From IMG/VR virus record IMGVR_UViG_3300015259_000001: a stretch of 64,000 nt of DNA; one strand, written 5' to 3'. The notes beneath the pieces were generated by a model. It had not been told where the DNA came from. It ran no database searches and saw only the letters and a list, made by a program, of their open reading frames with translations. This document shows positions 3,395-21,470 of this stretch, in pieces. The DNA is from a virus. How positions within the stretch are numbered: position 1 is the first letter of the stretch; each line of letters starts with the position of its first letter. The translations under genes and the position numbers were made by a program.

Positions 3395-4093
3395 ATGAGC
3401 GTAGATACACTAACATTCTACCATCCTTTGCCTGTATTCGGGGTAGCATTAAGCCGACAATGGGATGAATTCCGGCACGACTTCCGACAACTATCCACGC
3501 TAGTTCGAGCCGCCTATGCGGACATTTCAAACACCCCGGGGGATCATGATCTGTCCGGTTGGGCCTTAGGCGAACTCGACTTTCATAACCGCTTCAGAAC
3601 ATTCTACGATAAAGTTAATAGACAATTTAAAATTCAGATAAACACCGGCACTGTAGCCGTTCCTATCTGGACTGACGCTCTACAGATCCGTAGGAGCGAC
3701 GGTCGTGTTATTGCAGCGGGTACTGGTGGATTCCAATCTTTACAGGGGTTCTATCAACTTGACCCACCGGATGTAACATTTAGGGAAACGGCTGGACCTG
3801 AATTTACCGGCAAGGACGTAATTGAATTCCTATCTAATGATTTCTACCTTACTGGAACTGCTCTAGGTAATCCTCAACTTGCACTAAATAATCCAAAAAT
3901 GAAGCAAGTTGTTCATTTTGATGGGGTAGTAGAGTTTAATGTTTCCCATTCATTCCCTGATGATAACTTTACATATGCTGTATATGATGACGATAAAAAG
4001 TCAATTATTCCAGATGCAGTATTCGCGTATAGGACAGGGGTGGATTTCTACTTGCCTAGACAAGCTAGTGGAAGAGCAGTGCTTATATGGTAA
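3395..4093 (+). CDS. Putative virion/tail-associated protein sharing a ~45-aa module with the 15820 fibre
   Basis: GFYQLDPPDVTFRETAGPEFTGKDVIEFLSNDFYLTGTALGNPQLAL resembles two segments of ORF 15820. Confidence 0.55.
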   Translation: MSVDTLTFYHPLPVFGVALSRQWDEFRHDFRQLSTLVRAAYADISNTPGDHDLSGWALGELDFHNRFRTFYDKVNRQFKIQINTGTVAVPIWTDALQIRRSDGRVIAAGTGGFQSLQGFYQLDPPDVTFRETAGPEFTGKDVIEFLSNDFYLTGTALGNPQLALNNPKMKQVVHFDGVVEFNVSHSFPDDNFTYAVYDDDKKSIIPDAVFAYRTGVDFYLPRQASGRAVLIW

Positions 4094-4798: not shown

Positions 4799-5181
4799 TG
4801 GCTAAGAAACTACCTAAAGGTGCTCAATCTCTTAGTGATATCGCTAAAATGCGAGGTAGAGGAGGGCAAATACTTAGCAGAGAACGAGTTAGAAGTAATG
4901 TATTATTTTCGGGTAATCTCCCTGAAGAAACTAGAAAAGGTGTAAAAGCATGGGGGGTTAGTAAGACTGCTAAGAAAGTTGTTGGAGATCCTGAGGTTCT
5001 TAAAGCTATAACTAGGTCTGTATATCAAAGATCCCATATGGCAGAACAACTTGCTAGGAAAGCAAGTAAACTTGGAGCTATAGGACAAATAGCTACTCTA
5101 CCATCTCAACTAGAAGAGTATAAAGAACGCATGAAGCCTCTTCATAAGAAAGAGCAAGAACGAAGTGCTAGAGGTATTTAA
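4798..5181 (+). CDS. Basic hypothetical protein
   Basis: K/R-rich 127 aa, TAATG coupled on both sides. Confidence 0.6.
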   Translation: MAKKLPKGAQSLSDIAKMRGRGGQILSRERVRSNVLFSGNLPEETRKGVKAWGVSKTAKKVVGDPEVLKAITRSVYQRSHMAEQLARKASKLGAIGQIATLPSQLEEYKERMKPLHKKEQERSARGI

Positions 5182-14431: not shown

Positions 14432-14454
14432 TAGTTAGCTAAGCTTTAATTAGC

Positions 14455-14492
14455 AAAGAAGGCTAGGATTTCGGTCCTAGCCTTCTTTTTTT
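14455..14492 (+). terminator. Intrinsic terminator after MCP
   Basis: AAAGAAGGCTAGGA-TTTCGG-TCCTAGCCTTCTTT then T-run. Confidence 0.9.
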
Positions 14493-14504
14493 GGTATACT
14501 ATAA
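14492..14504 (+). promoter_or_regulatory. Promoter motif TGGTATACTATAA
   Basis: Abuts the terminator T-run, upstream of SD AAAGGAG. Confidence 0.7.
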
Positions 14505-14521
14505 ATGAAAGGAGAAATAGT

Positions 14522-14608
14522 ATGTTCTATTTAACTTTAATTAAGGTAATAACAGTATTCGTATTTCTAGCTCAGTTTCCCGGTAATATGGGGTGCCGAG
14601 GTCAGTAA
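14522..14608 (+). CDS. 28-aa hydrophobic peptide
   Basis: MFYLTLIKVITVFVFLAQFPGNMGCRGQ; SD AAAGGAGA plus own promoter motif. Confidence 0.5.
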   Translation: MFYLTLIKVITVFVFLAQFPGNMGCRGQ

Positions 14609-14623
14609 TACTTAGGAGACAAT

Positions 14624-14962
14624 ATGTCTAGATTCTTAGAAGGGGTTAGCGAACAGGTTAACGTCGGTAGTGCCGAAGAAATATATCATGCAGATTTGAC
14701 TACTAATAGAATTATTCTTGATGATAATGAAATAGCTACTGTATTTGGTATGGAATTCGCTAATAGTTCTGGATCAGCCGCTGAAGTAACGGTAACAGAC
14801 GGTGTTGGTAGTGTAAAGTTTACTGCTACCATGCCTCCCCGACAGAGCGTTCCTTGGCCGGTAAAATTCTTAGCAGAAGATGGTCTTATTGTAGAGGGAC
14901 TTACCGGCGGGCAAGCTGATGATGTTTTCGTATCTGTTTTTTATACTGCCGGAATTGTTTAG
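14624..14962 (+). CDS. Paralog family A virion protein
   Basis: IATVFGMEFAN...FLAEDGLIV...VFVSVF. Confidence 0.65.
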   Translation: MSRFLEGVSEQVNVGSAEEIYHADLTTNRIILDDNEIATVFGMEFANSSGSAAEVTVTDGVGSVKFTATMPPRQSVPWPVKFLAEDGLIVEGLTGGQADDVFVSVFYTAGIV

Positions 14963-14970
14963 ATACCACG

Positions 14971-15363
14971 ATGAAAATTTGTGCGAAATGTAATACAGAG
15001 AAACCTCTATCTTCGTTTGTGAGAAACAAAAATGGGAAGAATGGATTACATTGTTATTGCAAATATTGCATGAATCTATTATCGAAGACATGGCGTGATA
15101 AAAATAAAGAATATCAAAGGAACTATAATTATACTTTATTGTATGGTATTACCTTAGAAGAGTATAATAGAATGTATAGTTTACAGAATGGTTCCTGTGG
15201 TATTTGTTTTAACAAGACAAAGAAATTGTACGTGGATCACTGTCATAGTACCGGAAAAGTTAGAAAACTTTTATGTAATAGGTGTAATGTCGCTGTGGGT
15301 TTCATGGAAGATAAAAATATAGTTAAAGCTATAAATGATTATTTAGAGGAGACTTTATGTTAG
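14971..15363 (+). CDS. Endonuclease VII-type HNH (free-standing homing endonuclease-like)
   Basis: N-terminal CxxC...CxxC; YGITLEEY...QNGSCGIC...VDHCHSTGKVRKLLCNRCN. Confidence 0.9.
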   Translation: MKICAKCNTEKPLSSFVRNKNGKNGLHCYCKYCMNLLSKTWRDKNKEYQRNYNYTLLYGITLEEYNRMYSLQNGSCGICFNKTKKLYVDHCHSTGKVRKLLCNRCNVAVGFMEDKNIVKAINDYLEETLC

Positions 15364-15521
15364 AATATGGCGCATTGTCACTTTTTGTAGTTTATGCTGT
15401 GGCTGTAAATGTACAACTTTTTCTATTAAAAAGATCAATTAACTCTCTATCTCAGCCGGTGGTATCAACCCCACCTAAGCAGAAAGTATTAGTTAGTTCA
15501 AAGCGGGTCCTTAATTACTAG
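15357..15521 (+). CDS. 54-aa single-TM protein
   Basis: Hand translation MLEYGALSLFVVYAVAVNVQLFLLKRSINS...; SD GAGGAG. Confidence 0.5.
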   Translation: MLEYGALSLFVVYAVAVNVQLFLLKRSINSLSQPVVSTPPKQKVLVSSKRVLNY

Positions 15522-15529
15522 GAGGACAG

Positions 15530-15820
15530 ATGAATTATCGGGCAAGTATATTAACCCGAGTTGAGTTAGACCAAGATAGAACCATTGGTAATGGGAAAAC
15601 TATAACTATCTTTGGTATTACTATAGCCAATGCTGAAGATGTTCCCGCTCTTGTAGATATACAAGATGCTGCTGGAACCAACAAACTTACTATTGTGGTA
15701 CCTTGTAAAGAGACTCATAGCATCCCCTATGAGTGGATCGCTGATGGTGGTCTTCAAATCGACGGAATAGGGTCTGCAAACGTTATAGTTACAGTGGCTC
15801 ATAGTCAGGCAGGATCATAA
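15530..15820 (+). CDS. Paralog family A virion protein
   Basis: ITIFGITIAN...WIADGGLQI...VIVTV. Confidence 0.65.
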   Translation: MNYRASILTRVELDQDRTIGNGKTITIFGITIANAEDVPALVDIQDAAGTNKLTIVVPCKETHSIPYEWIADGGLQIDGIGSANVIVTVAHSQAGS

Positions 15821-17598
15821 TGTCTGAGCTTCTCACATCCTGTCCTTCGACCGGAGGTGGAGGGTTCTACGGACTTCTGGTTAAAGAATCCGAATCTGGA
15901 GGTTTCTCCCAATCTTCAGATGAGATAGTATTTGATTCGTCCTATTTCTATGTTTCCTCTTCTGGTAATAGTAAACCTCTCGTATCTCTAATAGATGGAG
16001 CATTAGATTCTAGATATGTAAATATAGATGGAGATACAATGACCGGCAACCTACTCCTTCCAGACGGAAGTATTTCAGCTCCCGCTCTGGCCTTCTCGGG
16101 GGATACCGGGATGGGGATTCGGAGGAGTGGCGGCGGATTTATATTTACGAATGATGGTGTGGATATCTTAACCATATCTGGATCTCCCACGTTTCTTGCA
16201 TCCGTCAACAATTTCAATGTTGGCGGGACTCTAACTGCCGGGGGGGTAATAACCGCTAATGGAGGCATCATTACTGGTGCCGGAGACACTATTACATTAG
16301 GATTAGGATCCCAGATATTGGGAGACTCTCCGGCTGTCGGTAATATTAATCCTACTTACGCCTTTGTTGACGATACCACTAGCGGAGTGTATTTAGATGA
16401 AGACCACGATGGAATAGGAATAGCTATCAGATCTGAGACAGAACTGGTAGTCAAAAGAGATGCTGTGTTAGTTAGGGGAGGATTTTATGCTGTTACCGTA
16501 GAAGTTCCTTCTAATGGTAGAATATACACGGGTGATGGTTCGGCAACTTTACCCAGTTATGCCTTTGCTTCTGACCCAACTTCAGGATTATGGAAAATAG
16601 GAAATAGTTTATTCTTTGGTACTCAAGGTGGAACTAATTTCGCATCTGTAGGTACTACAGGATTAACAGGTAGTGCCCTACAAGTAAGTGGTGCTTCTGG
16701 GGCCTCGGCAATAGTAGGCGGGTTAACTCTATCTACCGTCGGTGGTGGAAATTTAGTAATAGGAAGCTTTCTAGATTCTGATAGCCGTGTACAGATCAAT
16801 GATGGTACGGCTGCATCACCCGGTATTCAATTTAGAAATGATACCGATAATGGTATGTTCCGAATTGGAACTAATAAATTAGGGTTCTCTGCCGGTGGGG
16901 CTAAACAGGTTACTGTAACTAGACAAGCAGTAACCGTAGCAGGAGGGTTTTATTCTGCGACATTTGGAGAACCTCTATATGAACTAACGGTTCAGGAGAC
17001 TAATGGTGGAGACTCTTACGATGGTTTAGACTCTATAGAGTTTGAAGGTGCATTCTTTTATGTAACACCAAGTTCTTCATCTAAGAGAGCTATAGTAAAT
17101 TTCATACCTCCAGTAGTTAGAAAAGTCAATCCAGTTAGTGTTGCTAGCACAGCTACTAATATAGAGGTATTTAGACATACACTACCTGCTAATTTTCTTG
17201 AGTCCACAGGTGCCGTACGTACAAGGTTACTATGTAATTATCTCAATAATAGCGGTTCTAATAGAAATCTTACTGTAAGAATAACATTTGGATCAACAGT
17301 AATATTTGAAGACTTACTTGCAATTACAACTGGAGCAGCTACTAGAGCATTAATATTAGAGTTTACATTAGGCAATAGAGGAATCTCAAACTCACAAATA
17401 CTTGGTGGAACGATGTTATTATCTGGGGTAACTGCTCCGACAACTGGTATAGGTGGATTTGCCATAGGTGCTGGTGGTGCATTTACTGGAACCGCCAGTG
17501 AGGATACTACTCTATCTAAAGATATAATAATAGGTATAAGTAATAGTAGTACTGGTACTTTGTTTACTCTATTACACTCTACTGTAGAGAGGATTTAA
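15820..17598 (+). CDS. Tail fibre/spike protein
   Basis: G/S/T-rich; four copies of a DG(S/T)xxxPxxxFxxDxxxG repeat typical of phage fibres. Confidence 0.75.
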   Translation: MSELLTSCPSTGGGGFYGLLVKESESGGFSQSSDEIVFDSSYFYVSSSGNSKPLVSLIDGALDSRYVNIDGDTMTGNLLLPDGSISAPALAFSGDTGMGIRRSGGGFIFTNDGVDILTISGSPTFLASVNNFNVGGTLTAGGVITANGGIITGAGDTITLGLGSQILGDSPAVGNINPTYAFVDDTTSGVYLDEDHDGIGIAIRSETELVVKRDAVLVRGGFYAVTVEVPSNGRIYTGDGSATLPSYAFASDPTSGLWKIGNSLFFGTQGGTNFASVGTTGLTGSALQVSGASGASAIVGGLTLSTVGGGNLVIGSFLDSDSRVQINDGTAASPGIQFRNDTDNGMFRIGTNKLGFSAGGAKQVTVTRQAVTVAGGFYSATFGEPLYELTVQETNGGDSYDGLDSIEFEGAFFYVTPSSSSKRAIVNFIPPVVRKVNPVSVASTATNIEVFRHTLPANFLESTGAVRTRLLCNYLNNSGSNRNLTVRITFGSTVIFEDLLAITTGAATRALILEFTLGNRGISNSQILGGTMLLSGVTAPTTGIGGFAIGAGGAFTGTASEDTTLSKDIIIGISNSSTGTLFTLLHSTVERI

Positions 17599-17599
17599 T

Positions 17600-17863
17600 A
17601 TGCCTTTTTCTATAAGAATAAATGCTACGTTTGATAATGGATTTAATCCAGATACAAAGGCATGGACAATAAGTATCTCTAGTATAAGAGAAATATTAGA
17701 TAATGGTAATATAGTCGGTATTGTCAATCTAGCTAAAGCTACAGATAGTTTATCATTTAATGAACTATTAAATGTACTTCAATCAGAATTGATGGAATTT
17801 TCTAATAGATTAGAAAAAATTCCTGTCGATTTAAGTCGAACATCTTCATTGTCTTCCAAGTAA
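17600..17863 (+). CDS. Hypothetical protein (possible fibre chaperone)
   Basis: 87 aa directly after the fibre gene. Confidence 0.5.
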   Translation: MPFSIRINATFDNGFNPDTKAWTISISSIREILDNGNIVGIVNLAKATDSLSFNELLNVLQSELMEFSNRLEKIPVDLSRTSSLSSK

Positions 17864-17867
17864 AATT

Positions 17868-17876
17868 TGCTATAAT
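17868..17876 (+). promoter_or_regulatory. Extended -10 promoter TGCTATAAT for tRNA-Asn
   Basis: Consensus TGn-TATAAT 13 nt upstream of the tRNA. Confidence 0.7.
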
Positions 17877-17889
17877 ATCAACAGTTTAT

Positions 17890-17964
17890 TCCGTAGTAGC
17901 TCAATGGCGGAGCAGTGCTCTGTTAAAGCACGGGTTGTTGGTTCAAGTCCAGCCTACGGAGCCA
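17890..17964 (+). tRNA. tRNA-Asn (GTT), CCA encoded
   Basis: TCCGTAG/CTACGGA acceptor, GCTC/GAGC D-stem, GTGCT-CTGTTAA-AGCAC anticodon arm, TTCAAGT T-loop. Confidence 0.95.
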
Positions 17965-17980
17965 TTTAGAAAGGGAGAAA

Positions 17981-19009
17981 ATGGATATTCTAGTAACAGG
18001 GGCAGCCGGACTAGTAGGTTTTAACGCTTGTAAGTATTTCCAGCAGCAAGGTCATAACGTTTTAGGGATAGATAATCTAGAGAGATCTTCTCTTCTTGGA
18101 CACAAAGTATCTGAGGATAGGAAGCTATTTAATGTCCACGCTCTAGAACGCCTTGGGATCTCTTGTTTACGCTGGGACGTGTCGAATGCTGACATATGGG
18201 AAGATCTTCCGGCTATGGACGCTGTAGTGCATCTAGCAGGGCAATGCGGAGTACCTACCTCTATTGCTAACCCCCGCCGAGATTTCGAAATAAACACTAT
18301 TGGTACATTTAATGCTTTAGAGTTCGCTAGGACCTTTGGTGCTAGATTTGTATATGCCTCTACAAATAAGGTTTATCCGATCCATGGAGGATGGCATCTA
18401 GAGGATAGACGATGGCGGTGGACCAATCCCGGTAGGCATCAATCTGGCTTTCCTGTTATGGCTATGGATCAAAGCGGCAGAACGCCCTATGGAGCGTCCA
18501 AATACGCCGGGGACGTACTTGTACAGGAGTACGGTGATATCTTTGGCCTACGGACAGCCTGCTTCCGAATGAGTTGTATTTATGGTCAGAACCAGATGGG
18601 GTTCGAGGAACAAGGGTGGTTGACCCACTTTATTATATCTACCCTTAAGGGAGAACCTATTACAATATACGGAGACGGGATGCAAGTACGAGACTGTCTC
18701 TACGTAGATGATTTAATCAAAGCTTACGAAGCATTTTTAATCAATGATAAGATTAAATCTAATGTTTTTAATATCGGAGGTGGACCAGAATATACATTAT
18801 CTCTTCTAGAATGTATTGATCTTATCGAGAAGTATACGGGTAAGAAAAGTCCCATTAACTTTCAGGATTGGCGACCATCGGATCAAAGGGTATATACTTC
18901 ATCATTTTTTAAAGCAAAATTAGAATTAGGATGGCAACCGACAGTATCTCCAGAGGAAGGAATTAAAAAGGTTCTGGAATGGGTAGAGCCTAATATTAAC
19001 ATATTTTAG
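17981..19009 (+). CDS. NAD-dependent nucleotide-sugar epimerase, CDP-paratose/tyvelose 2-epimerase-like
   Basis: TGAAGLVG, HLAGQ, STNKVY, YGASK, FRMSCIYG, EEQGW. Confidence 0.85.
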   Translation: MDILVTGAAGLVGFNACKYFQQQGHNVLGIDNLERSSLLGHKVSEDRKLFNVHALERLGISCLRWDVSNADIWEDLPAMDAVVHLAGQCGVPTSIANPRRDFEINTIGTFNALEFARTFGARFVYASTNKVYPIHGGWHLEDRRWRWTNPGRHQSGFPVMAMDQSGRTPYGASKYAGDVLVQEYGDIFGLRTACFRMSCIYGQNQMGFEEQGWLTHFIISTLKGEPITIYGDGMQVRDCLYVDDLIKAYEAFLINDKIKSNVFNIGGGPEYTLSLLECIDLIEKYTGKKSPINFQDWRPSDQRVYTSSFFKAKLELGWQPTVSPEEGIKKVLEWVEPNINIF

Positions 19010-19010
19010 G

Positions 19011-19038
19011 TTGCAATCAGTTTGAAATATGCTATAAT
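19011..19038 (+). promoter_or_regulatory. Sigma70-like promoter TTGCAA-16-TATAAT with TG extension
   Basis: Read directly; no SD/ORF follows immediately. Confidence 0.7.
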
Positions 19039-19048
19039 TTATTTACTA

Positions 19049-19197
19049 GGTTCCTCCGGCAACGTCACTTTAAGACCGACGCCAAGACCCGTTAGTTGCC
19101 TATGTGCAGCTAATGGCGAGCAGGACGGCTAGCGCGCAAGTGACGTGGAGAACGGCCCTGAAGGGTGGCAAAGCTTCCCCCTTTGGGGCCGACTTTT
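19049..19197 (+). ncRNA. Candidate structured non-coding RNA (unassigned family)
   Basis: GC-rich island after a promoter; ACGTCACTT/AAGTGACGT perfect 9 bp, CCGTTAGTTGC/GCAGCTAATGG 11 bp, 3' GGCCC...GGGCC hairpin then TTTT. Confidence 0.6.
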
Positions 19198-19386
19198 ATG
19201 TATGAAATAACAAAACATAAACATAGATATCCTGAAAACTGCCGACATTGTCAGATTGGTTGGTGTAATCATACTTTTCATGGTTTTATATACGATGAAC
19301 ATGGATGTATAAGATGTATGAAAAAAACTAAAAAATGGTATACTATGAATAGAGGTATGAGATATGACAACAGAAATAATCACTAA
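19198..19386 (+). CDS. Possible small Cys/His-rich protein
   Basis: CRHCQIGWCNH...HGCIRC; no clear SD; overlaps the next promoter motif. Confidence 0.35.
   Translation: MYEITKHKHRYPENCRHCQIGWCNHTFHGFIYDEHGCIRCMKKTKKWYTMNRGMRYDNRNNH
19336..19346 (+). promoter_or_regulatory. Promoter motif TGGTATACTAT
   Basis: Upstream of SD AGAGGT and ORF 19364. Confidence 0.6.
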
Positions 19387-19552
19387 AGATGAACCCTGTC
19401 ATGATAGGAATTGGACTAGGGATGTTGAACCTTGGGATCAAGTAAATTGTCCTGAGATGGCAGCACATAAGGAGATGGAAGAGAGAACTGGAAATGGTTA
19501 TCATACCGTCCCCGCACCGGGCGAGCCGATTAATTACGATTACGAAAATTAA
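19364..19552 (+). CDS. Small acidic hypothetical protein
   Basis: 62 aa. Confidence 0.55.
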   Translation: MTTEIITKDEPCHDRNWTRDVEPWDQVNCPEMAAHKEMEERTGNGYHTVPAPGEPINYDYEN

Positions 19553-19563
19553 GGAGTACAGTA

Positions 19564-19755
19564 ATGTTTAATAGAATTTGGTTAGCTTTAGCTAGAAGTG
19601 TTGTTTTAACGGCTCTCAATATTGCTGCACAGAGCGTGTTAGAGTCTATTGATCACACAAACAAGATCTCTGAGGCTGAGAAAATAGCGGCTAGAGGGGC
19701 AGTTCTTCAGCTAGTACAAGAACTTGGTAAGGAATTAGGGATTCCAACCGCGTAA
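19564..19755 (+). CDS. Small helical protein with hydrophobic N-terminus
   Basis: 63 aa, SD AAGGAG. Confidence 0.6.
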   Translation: MFNRIWLALARSVVLTALNIAAQSVLESIDHTNKISEAEKIAARGAVLQLVQELGKELGIPTA

Positions 19756-19758
19756 ATT

Positions 19759-19771
19759 TGCTATACTATTA
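19759..19771 (+). promoter_or_regulatory. Promoter motif TGCTATACTATTA
   Basis: Intergenic; followed by a ~95-nt leader. Confidence 0.7.
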
Positions 19772-19867
19772 ATGGAAGCGGACTCTGATAAAGAGCCCGT
19801 ATAACACACCATAGCAGGATTATACCTCATTCCAGCGTGAACGGGGCATCCGATAAGGAAACAAAAA

Positions 19868-20245
19868 ATGTCTACTTCTGTAAGAGTAAGACGGCGCTGT
19901 TCGCTCCCGGGCGCTGGTTTTGATAGTGCTGGTAATGCCAGTCAGAGTAAGGAGCAGGTAGTTGGTAAACTCGTGGTTACTAACTATAATCGTGGTGGTG
20001 AGACTCTACGCCCTGTTGATTTAGGGCTAACGTCTCTTGACTACCTGTCGCTTCAGCTAGAGGAAGGTCTAGCCGAGGCAGCACACGGCGTTAGAAGCGT
20101 AGTATATTCGGTTTCTGCACAGCAATTCTACGTTTTCGTAGAGACAGGTGCAACCGAGCAGCAAGACGAAGTAGCAGCTACTTCAGACCCGGTTGTAAGC
20201 TTCCTCGCTGAGGGCGATGCAGTCCGAAGACCTGAGCTTCTCTAA
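19868..20245 (+). CDS. Putative capsid decoration/minor virion protein
   Basis: 125 aa beta-rich, YNRGGETLRPVDLGL; own promoter and terminator. Confidence 0.55.
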   Translation: MSTSVRVRRRCSLPGAGFDSAGNASQSKEQVVGKLVVTNYNRGGETLRPVDLGLTSLDYLSLQLEEGLAEAAHGVRSVVYSVSAQQFYVFVETGATEQQDEVAATSDPVVSFLAEGDAVRRPELL

Positions 20246-20309
20246 TATCACCCCCTAACCCTAACAGGTTAGGCCCCCTATAAGTTACGATTTATAGGAC
20301 AACTGAATA

Positions 20310-20352
20310 AAGACCCGGTAGAGGATCTCACGCCTCTACCGGGTTTTCTTTT
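20310..20352 (+). terminator. Intrinsic terminator
   Basis: CCCGGTAGAGG/CCTCTACCGGG 11-bp stem followed by TTTTCTTTT. Confidence 0.85.
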
Positions 20353-20356
20353 GAAT

Positions 20357-20491
20357 ATGACTTATACGTGTTCAGACTGTTTTCGCAAGTTCAATAAAGA
20401 CTTTGGTAAAGGAAGAAAACCAAAGCGTTGCGAAAATTGTCGTGAAAAGATTAAAGACAAGTGGCGTAAAAGCCACACTAAGGAGAAATAA
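20357..20491 (+). CDS. 44-aa zinc-ribbon basic microprotein
   Basis: Hand translation MTYTCSDCFRKFNKDFGKGRKPKRCENCREKIKDKWRKSHTKEK. Confidence 0.5.
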   Translation: MTYTCSDCFRKFNKDFGKGRKPKRCENCREKIKDKWRKSHTKEK

Positions 20492-20755
20492 ATGGCGGCA
20501 GTAACAACTTCAAATGGTCCTTTCGTACTAGCTCTCGGTCCAATCAAGCTAGAAGTAGCTCAGATTGCATCAGTAGATGACGCAGATACCTATTCCAGCA
20601 GAATTCAGAGACCTGTATTCGGTTGCTTTGTACCGAATAATGACTCGAACGCGGCAATTGAATCTGTAAACCTAGGGATAAGCGGTAAGACGATTACGTT
20701 TAATAACGACGCTCTTTCTGCACACGCTGGCGTATTGTTCCTATTCGGTTTCTAA
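20492..20755 (+). CDS. Small beta-rich virion protein
   Basis: 87 aa, SD AAGGAG. Confidence 0.6.
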   Translation: MAAVTTSNGPFVLALGPIKLEVAQIASVDDADTYSSRIQRPVFGCFVPNNDSNAAIESVNLGISGKTITFNNDALSAHAGVLFLFGF

Positions 20756-20777
20756 TCAATTAGGGGAGGAGATAGAA

Positions 20778-21470
20778 ATGGGATATCTACCACAGACGTT
20801 CCGTCCTAACGGACTACCTCATAAAGAATTTCGTCCCGGTGACGATCTTCCTGAAATGTTTCATTACCATCTCAAGGCACTAGACTACGATCTTTACTGT
20901 GTATGGCATCCATATAGGTGCCTTTGGGATGATGTAATGAATAAGTATTATGGCTCTCTTGAAGATCCACGATATCAAATTCAGGAATCATTCGGGCAAG
21001 AAGTATGGGGTTGGGCTGTAACTGATGGTAAAGGCGCACCAATTCTCGATGAGACTTGGCATGTTTGGCGTCTAAGTCAAGTAGGCTGGCATCATATTAT
21101 CCAGATAAAATCAAAGGAACCTCAATATTTAAATAGGGTTTTGGAGTCAATCTGGGAGCAAAAGCTAGTTGAAAAGTATGGTCGCAAAGCAATAATTCGC
21201 ATGAAAGAGGAACAGGCTGAAGCGGCTATGGAAAAGACAAACCAGCAAAAGACTCAAGCTTTCGAAGATCTCCAAAAGGAAAATAAATCTGCATTTCGAA
21301 AAGCAATGGAGAACTACGAAAGAGGATATATTGAAGCTACCGATCAAACTGTTGATATAATCACTAGTTATAGCGGGCAAGGTAATAGGTCAAGAATTAC
21401 TAGACCTAGTACCGATGAAGATGGCGGTATTGTAGGTTGGGACGGAAAAGCAATAAGTAAGGTTAAGTAA
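20778..21470 (+). CDS. Hypothetical protein upstream of the adaptor
   Basis: 230 aa, Trp-rich N-domain plus coiled coil. Confidence 0.65.
   Translation: MGYLPQTFRPNGLPHKEFRPGDDLPEMFHYHLKALDYDLYCVWHPYRCLWDDVMNKYYGSLEDPRYQIQESFGQEVWGWAVTDGKGAPILDETWHVWRLSQVGWHHIIQIKSKEPQYLNRVLESIWEQKLVEKYGRKAIIRMKEEQAEAAMEKTNQQKTQAFEDLQKENKSAFRKAMENYERGYIEATDQTVDIITSYSGQGNRSRITRPSTDEDGGIVGWDGKAISKVK

Follow-up and report, generated by a model that had tools for sequence, protein, structure and literature searches.

The window, that is, the whole stretch of 64,000 nucleotides analyzed here, corresponds to bases 29356-93355 of the 121,061-base IMG/VR virus record IMGVR_UViG_3300015259_000001, which originates from freshwater sediment and has a GC content of 40%. 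The phage is uncultured, with a genome of 121 kb, and no close cultured relative of it was found; the only cultured relative for its capsid protein is a Microbacterium phage, with 32% identity. The first and last 60 bases of the record, both outside the window, are situated inside tandem repeats of about 21 nt (AGCTTATCGCCCTCAGC...), and the record therefore probably breaks in a repeat array rather than at a true genome end.

A gene for a CDP-paratose-2-epimerase-like protein, whose homologs are named CDP-paratose 2-epimerase in their sources, is followed on the same strand by a candidate structured RNA and three small ORFs (Table 1), and a glycosyltransferase block is present in the same phage. 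The comparison of window positions 14432-19867 with L003, L005, and L128-L145 showed that insertions concentrate in the interval from the major capsid gene to the homolog of ORF 19868, which is thus an insertion hot spot. Among the 22 relatives that were reached via the capsid protein, the gap at this site ranges from about 0.2 to 5 kb and differs in content, with tRNA-Asn and tRNA-Thr located at the hot spot in L132 and L143. The epimerase gene, the RNA, and the three small ORFs are absent from all 22 of these relatives, and the island with the RNA is also missing in five larger records.

Table 1. Coordinates in the window of the features at and around the RNA unit.
Feature	Position	Strand	Description
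CDP-paratose-2-epimerase-like gene	17981..19009	+	Pfam Epimerase, E = 8e-47; 342 aa, NAD-dependent
-35 hexamer TTGCAA	19011..19016	+	starts 2 nt past the epimerase stop codon (19009)
Extended -10 TGcTATAAT	19030..19038	+	16-nt spacer after TTGCAA
Rod domain	19050..19153	+	predicted fold; closed; model matches in four other lineages
P1	19050-19057 with 19147-19153	+	GUUC/GAAC and UCC/GGA, one bulged C
GGCA bulge	19058-19061	+	4 nt, from the fold
P2	19062-19070 with 19138-19146	+	perfect 9-bp helix, ACGUCACUU/AAGUGACGU
P3	19089-19099 with 19106-19116	+	11 bp, two G-U pairs; loop at 19100-19105
Bubble, 3' side	19117..19137	+	palindromes GCUAGC (19128-19133) and GCGCGC (19132-19137)
3' hairpin domain	19154..19190	+	14 bp; 8-nt loop CAAAGCUU at 19169-19176
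U tract UUUU	19194..19197	+	terminator-like in scan
Zinc-ribbon ORF (ORF 19198)	19198..19386	+	62 aa; CxxC..GWC..HGCxxC; starts right after the U tract
Extended -10-like TGGTATACT	19336..19344	+	inside ORF 19198; serves ORF 19364-19552
ORF 19564	19564-19755	+	63 aa; follows ORF 19364

The sequence-only reading had placed a consensus promoter in front of a GC-rich non-coding island, and both features were recovered. An extended -10 promoter of the sigma-70 type (TTGCAA-16-TGcTATAAT) is found at 19011-19038, and no other non-coding stretch of the genome is as rich in GC as the island. The GC content of the RNA unit is 58-66%, compared to 40% genome-wide, and its 80-nt GC peak is the highest among 53 genome stretches of at least 90 nt located outside ORFs of at least 90 aa. 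Transcription is predicted from the promoter spacing to start near position 19045. An identical copy of TGCTATAAT is located upstream of tRNA-Asn at 17868. A near-identical promoter, TTGCAATC..AAATATGCTATAATTT, is found at genome bases 19051-19082, about 10.3 kb before the start of the window and ahead of an ORF of 127 aa, which suggests that the phage contains host-type promoters of a shared class.

The predicted transcript contains two domains, a rod and a 3' hairpin. The rod fold that had been described, with a closing stem, a perfect stem, an internal bubble of 18/21 nt, and an apical stem of 11 bp with two G-U pairs, was reproduced, with the bubble placed between P2 and P3, and most pairs in P2 and P3 have a probability above 0.98. 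The terminator-like GGCCC...GGGCC hairpin that had been noticed downstream is also present and is followed by GAC-UUUU, the hairpin and the U tract together spanning 19154-19197. By folding energy, the rod is unremarkable given its composition; taken alone, it has a minimum free energy with a z-score of -1.45, and 81 of 1000 shuffled sequences fold equally well. For the whole unit the z-score is -2.8, to which the hairpin (z = -3.2) is the main contributor. The architecture of the rod is exceptional, and none of 5000 dinucleotide shuffles contained a Watson-Crick helix of 9 bp or more without interruption around an inner helix of 11 bp or more in which G-U pairs were allowed. A chance origin of the fold is excluded by the covariation in four homologs that is described below.

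Homologs of the RNA were reached via the closest proteins of the upstream epimerase gene, which are encoded on contigs L147 (77% identity), L148 (72%), L149 and L150 (61%), and L152 and L153 (58%). The RNA unit is located directly 3' of the epimerase gene in four other metagenomic phage lineages, represented by L148, L147, L149, and L152. With a single-sequence covariance model derived from the window copy, the four lineages scored 127, 59, 51, and 36 bits, each match being placed right after the epimerase gene. A family model gave scores of 64-112 bits for all five members, including the window, and no further matches in 418 kb of sequence. The RNA is lacking at the more distant epimerase homologs P0006, P0036, P0051, and P0010, which are situated in other contexts. 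tRNA genes are located upstream of the epimerase-RNA unit in the window, in L148, which has five tRNAs, and in L149.

A search of the window against Rfam at the gathering threshold returned two tRNAs alone, and the matches obtained with an E-value threshold in the window region and in L147, L148, L149, and L152 were at chance level. The earlier statement that no family could be assigned is thus in agreement with an Rfam search that gave no match in any member. BLAST of the region against cultured phages and a tblastn search with ORF 19364 found nothing, and initial searches of viral contigs revealed no relatives of the epimerase, ORF 19198, ORF 19364, or ORF 19564. Exact words from the rod were absent from viral and metagenome contigs, and an 18-mer from the rod gave chance matches without extension in prokaryote genomes. 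The RNA appears to be a member of a new, previously undescribed family of phage small RNAs, which is based on five members, all of them reached through one neighboring gene.

Covariation was among the checks proposed for the fold, and an alignment of the homologs revealed compensatory changes. In the alignment fitted to the family model, which is biased towards the structure, 95.8% of the cells pair and 25 of the 41 pairs have changes on both sides, compared to a mean of 10.8 such pairs in shuffled alignments, none of which reached 25 in 500 trials, and to 2-5 in controls where the structure was slid along the alignment. The changes on both sides include eight of the nine pairs in P2 and 10 of the 14 pairs in the hairpin, where 100% of the cells pair. 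In an alignment inferred with MAFFT from the sequences only, there are 11 pairs with changes on both sides, compared to 5.7 in shuffles and 0-3 in the slid controls; in the hairpin, eight of the 14 pairs have such changes, again with 100% pairing. G-U pairs are found in 18 of the 168 paired cells, and the folded molecule is therefore the RNA of the + strand. The RNA region is non-coding; there are stops in every frame, and the length differences among the members are not multiples of three. Between the window and L148, the identity is 78% for the rod and 86% for both the hairpin and the promoter, versus 72% for the epimerase gene, 76% for ORF 19364, and 59% for ORF 19198; conservation of the RNA unit thus equals or exceeds that of the flanking genes.

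Conservation across the family extends to P1 (CCUCC/GGAG-like) and P2 with the 4-nt bulge, to the hairpin, and to the 3' side of the bubble, where the palindromes are located. The length of the rod, which is 104 nt in the window, is about 62-66 nt in L147, L149, and L152. The bubble is the least conserved part, and its 5' side is not conserved; its size is 18/21 nt in the window and L148, about 2/9 nt in L147, and 3/7-10 nt in L149. The apical stem is also variable, with 11 bp in the window, about 10 bp in L148, and 4-8 bp elsewhere. The hairpin is common to all five members, and covariation is seen in its lower stem, whereas the sequence of its top (GG-N-AAAGCU-N-CC) hardly varies. In three members, the consensus fold is also that of minimum energy; in L148 it differs from the minimum by no more than 0.1 kcal/mol, and in L147 it lies 4.1 kcal/mol higher. 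In the latter, at positions 5096-5162, the minimum-energy fold pairs CCAUCUGCG with CGCAGAUGG in competition with the consensus P2 and is more stable by 4 kcal/mol. This alternative pairing may represent a switch, or it may be coincidental and due to the repetition of CCAUC.

The predicted promoter signals are also conserved in position across the members. The -35 and -10 hexamers are TTGCAC..TATAAT in L148, TTGCAA..TATAAT in L147, TTGACA..TATTAT in L149, and TTGCAG..TATACT in L152, and the distance from the end of the predicted -10 hexamer to P1 is 5-13 nt in all five members. With the predicted promoter, the covariation, and no coding signal, the original description of a promoter-driven, structured RNA of about 150 nt is sustained.

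The assignment of a function is a different matter. The sequence-only reading had compared the rod to a miniature 6S RNA, a promoter mimic that would sequester the host RNA polymerase, and a phage would gain from control of the host polymerase. Similar to 6S RNA (RF00013 and related), the RNA is a non-coding rod with paired 5' and 3' ends, and in the window copy it has a large bubble. However, no 6S model was matched in covariance searches, which covered the window at the gathering threshold, 18900-19400 at E <= 10, and the four other members at E <= 1. 6S RNA, which binds the sigma-70 holoenzyme and templates a product RNA, has a length of about 150-200 nt, and long helices flank its bubble on either side; the RNA described here is about half as long, with a rod of 62-104 nt. 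The central bubble is the defining feature of a promoter mimic, but neither its size nor its 5' sequence is conserved across this family, and the extra conserved hairpin at the 3' end has no counterpart in 6S RNA. A 6S-like role is highly improbable, and one sequence that folds into a bubbled rod does not suffice to call a 6S mimic.

The hairpin may double as the stem of a terminator. The U tract is UUCUUUU in L147, UUUCUUUUUUU in L149, and CCUUU in L148, and its quality ranges from good (L149 and L147) and moderate (the window) to weak (L148) and poor (L152). The hairpin also belongs to the functional RNA, because the sequence of its loop is conserved, which is not needed by a terminator.

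The zinc-ribbon ORF that starts downstream of the hairpin is present in three of the five members. Its start codon is located 7 nt past the hairpin, and it has neither a promoter of its own nor a clear ribosome-binding site. The counterpart in L148 has 44% amino-acid identity with all cysteines kept, the first residues are seen in L147, and the ORF is absent from L149 and L152. ORF 19198 is not found in a collection of 5.8 billion proteins, although neighboring genes of the phage are, and it therefore appears never to have been called as a gene. Searches of a protein atlas and of representative sequences with HMMER gave only weak matches to cysteine-rich proteins, which are neutral as evidence, and no homologs beyond those in L148 and L147 were found. 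It is nonetheless a real gene, conserved in L148 and starting in L147. ORF 19364, which encodes the DEPC..NWTR..NGYH..YEN protein, is conserved in L148, L149, and L152, as checked in the alignment, and is followed in these three by gene calls of 63-65 aa that are probably the counterparts of ORF 19564. Neither ORF 19364 nor ORF 19564 has a match in Pfam or PHROG.

This arrangement gives rise to the main rival explanation, a cis role on the downstream small genes, according to which the RNA would be a 5' leader or attenuator. The rod would then sense a protein or a ligand, and the hairpin would serve as a terminator or as a platform that sequesters the start site, for the zinc-ribbon ORF and the DEPC..NWTR..NGYH protein. 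Consistently, in the three members with the zinc-ribbon ORF (the window, L148, and L147), its AUG directly follows the U tract, and the ORF lacks both a separate promoter and a clear ribosome-binding site. Small genes on the same strand follow the RNA in four members and begin after the RNA in L147, where the contig ends. In L152, where the U tract is poor, transcription probably runs on. However, the center of the rod, which would be the ligand pocket, is the most variable part, differing in both size and sequence, whereas a riboswitch has a conserved sensor core and a switching platform, and no conserved anti-terminator pairing was noticed in an unsystematic look. The conserved hairpin loop would not be needed by a pure expression platform. 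For the downstream gene, a separate -10-like element is present in the window, L148, and L149, and the RNA contigs described below begin there.

In L149, the hairpin is followed by about ten U/C residues, with which it makes a strong terminator, and then by a new promoter. The order is hairpin, UUUCUUUUUUU, TGGTACAAT (the equivalent of TGGTATACT), a ribosome-binding site, and the homolog of ORF 19364, without a zinc-ribbon ORF in between. It had been considered that the RNA might be merely the UTR of ORF 19198. Since the RNA in L149 ends in a long U tract without the ORF, and L152 also has the RNA without it, the RNA is not merely the 5' UTR of this gene. A cis-acting leader is on balance doubtful, although it deserves to be taken seriously.

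Another explanation looks upstream rather than downstream. The unit could be the structured 3' end of the tRNA-epimerase transcript, serving as a module for stabilization and termination, in which case the promoter would be incidental. There is no terminator between the epimerase stop codon at 19009 and the hairpin, and transcripts from the promoter at 17849 would end at the hairpin. Furthermore, the linkage to the epimerase is invariant, the gene being the upstream neighbor of the RNA in all five members. However, a -35/-10 pair precedes P1 in five of five members, which is needless for a 3' UTR, and the conserved rod and unpaired motifs exceed what a terminator needs. No RNA contig was found that joins the epimerase gene to the rod, which is weak evidence. 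Such a module is unlikely.

Evidence for expression in nature comes from two metatranscriptomes that contain parts of the region, the contigs of which were placed on positions 17000-21000. The record of the rod, which consists of one chimeric contig from one sample rather than of raw reads, is a contig of 169 nt with a depth of 5 in run X4 that matches 19051-19153 perfectly and has foreign flanks; it is what a look for a discrete transcript returned. The 5' flank derives from the very 3' terminus of a bacterial 23S rRNA and matches L007, in which the large-subunit rRNA model ends at 2925 of 2925 and the 5S gene comes next. The 3' flank corresponds to window positions 3500-3529, inside ORF 3395-4093 and in the sense orientation. 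The contig thus consists of the 3' end of 23S rRNA, CC, the rod, and a fragment of phage mRNA. The two rod junctions are placed exactly at the foot of P1, and the two C residues between the 23S rRNA and the rod are extra. Chimeras made during library preparation are well known in bacterial RNA-seq (PMC4122791), and the three-part contig is most likely such an artifact. The rod is nevertheless present as RNA of + sense, given that the three pieces share the sense polarity and that one of the junctions coincides with the natural 3' end of an RNA. Its 5' end lies about 6 nt past the predicted start and its 3' end just before the hairpin; these ends could result from natural processing or from fragmentation at the unpaired linkers. 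Pairing of the rod with the mRNA near position 3500 was considered and rejected, as the site ranks 345th of 24,202 windows in a duplex scan, which is unremarkable.

The downstream unit is strongly covered, with RNA contigs that begin at 19389 in X4 and at 19366 in X5. No contig in X4 or X5 links the rod to this unit, which is a weak hint only, and the lack of contig coverage in 19154-19365 and of a rod contig in X5 is neutral as evidence.

The contig from X4 first seemed to represent a second context of the rod, as would be expected if the unit were not an RNA but an element that is mobile or functions as DNA, for instance a MITE, a recombination site, or a palindrome to which a protein binds. 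The terminal inverted repeats GTTCCTCC...GGAGAAC and the location in an insertion hot spot are also compatible with an element of this type. However, the second context is a chimera of 23S rRNA and phage mRNA and not DNA, and the idea of a mobile module was therefore removed. The unit is present as a single copy in the genome, with none in the 22 relatives or in five larger records, the many G-U pairs make the structure strand-specific, and a promoter is kept just upstream. There is very little left to recommend an explanation at the level of DNA.

Several known RNAs share some features with the unit. The rnaC and rnaD of phage T4 (species 1 and 2 RNAs) are small, stable RNAs of 119-139 nt with unknown function, which are located beside phage tRNA genes on the same strand, and tRNA genes likewise precede the units in the window, L148, and L149. 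However, they are cut from a tRNA precursor, whereas the RNA described here has its own predicted promoter, and rnaC folds with a tRNA-like T arm, unlike this RNA. Homology was rejected, as the family model scores at most 5.8 bits in the T4 region, with E = 0.5 or worse, even with the filters off. Descent from a degenerate tRNA was likewise rejected, since the unit does not resemble the tRNA-Asn or tRNA-Thr found at this hot spot.

Phage morons and the promoter-stem-loop cassettes of T4-type phages are self-contained promoter-terminator units in variable regions. Similar to these, the unit runs from a promoter to a terminator in a strain-specific island at a recombination hot spot, but its cargo is a conserved structured RNA, and it travels with the epimerase gene. 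Bacterial Y RNAs (YrlA), which act with Ro60/Rsr and some of which are phage-borne, are also about 100 nt with paired ends and an internal loop. They differ by a tRNA-like domain, which this RNA lacks. There was no Rfam match to a Y RNA, and a TROVE/Ro60 gene is absent from the 121-kb genome, although a host-encoded Ro60 is possible. The RtcB gene was not found in the genome either. A retron msr-msd or another RNA linked to a reverse transcriptase was rejected, as no reverse transcriptase (RVT_1) was identified in the 121-kb genome in a search that gave matches in control genomes.

The phi29 packaging RNA and the dimerization-initiation hairpin of HIV-1 associate with themselves via loop-loop pairing. 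The RNA resembles them in having paired 5' and 3' ends and self-complementary unpaired loops, through which it might likewise self-associate. It differs from them in that one of its palindromes is located in an internal loop rather than in a hairpin loop, and no member has an Rfam match to a phage packaging RNA. All members have a palindrome of at least 6 nt on the 3' side of the bubble, which is GCUAGC in L148 and L149, GCGCGC in L147, and GCGAUCGC in L152, and the self-complementary sequences in the hairpin loop are AAGCUU, AGCU, or AAAUUU. Both unpaired sites are thus palindromic in the members despite changes in sequence, and pairing between molecules is therefore possible; the RNA could assemble itself into dimers, chains, or rings via the hairpin-loop and bubble sites. 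However, the complete RNA shows no enrichment of palindromic hexamers, and the pattern was noted post hoc in few independent lineages. In the genome, GCGATCGC is not over-represented, and there is no avoidance of palindromes. Self-assembly is rather unlikely. If true, the RNA would be a small counterpart of the phi29 packaging RNA or of large phage-associated RNAs, perhaps a scaffold for the neighboring small proteins.

The explanation that we prefer, with a probability of roughly 0.55, is an independently transcribed small RNA with two domains that acts in trans on a protein or on itself. The host sigma-70 RNA polymerase would start at the extended -10 promoter abutting the epimerase stop codon and produce a transcript of about 150 nt. 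The first domain would be the closed rod, with P1, the 4-nt bulge, P2, and a variable apical hairpin, and the second the 14-bp hairpin with its sequence-conserved top, which together with the U tract would end most transcripts. The rod at 19051-19153 may be released, or persist, as a discrete piece of about 103 nt. In trans, the RNA would act via its conserved unpaired motifs, namely the GGCA bulge, the hairpin loop, and the 3' side of the bubble with the palindromes, and would probably offer a platform to which a protein or another copy of the RNA binds. We infer the transcription start, the termination, the processing, the action in trans, and the partner from the features described above.

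Structured RNAs encoded by phages are few, and most have no known function. The RNA unit combines a conserved promoter, covariation in two domains, and evidence of expression in nature with an invariant link to a cassette of an epimerase gene and small proteins. As a compact and clonable element of about 190 bp, it offers a way to ask what a fully structured, non-antisense phage RNA does.
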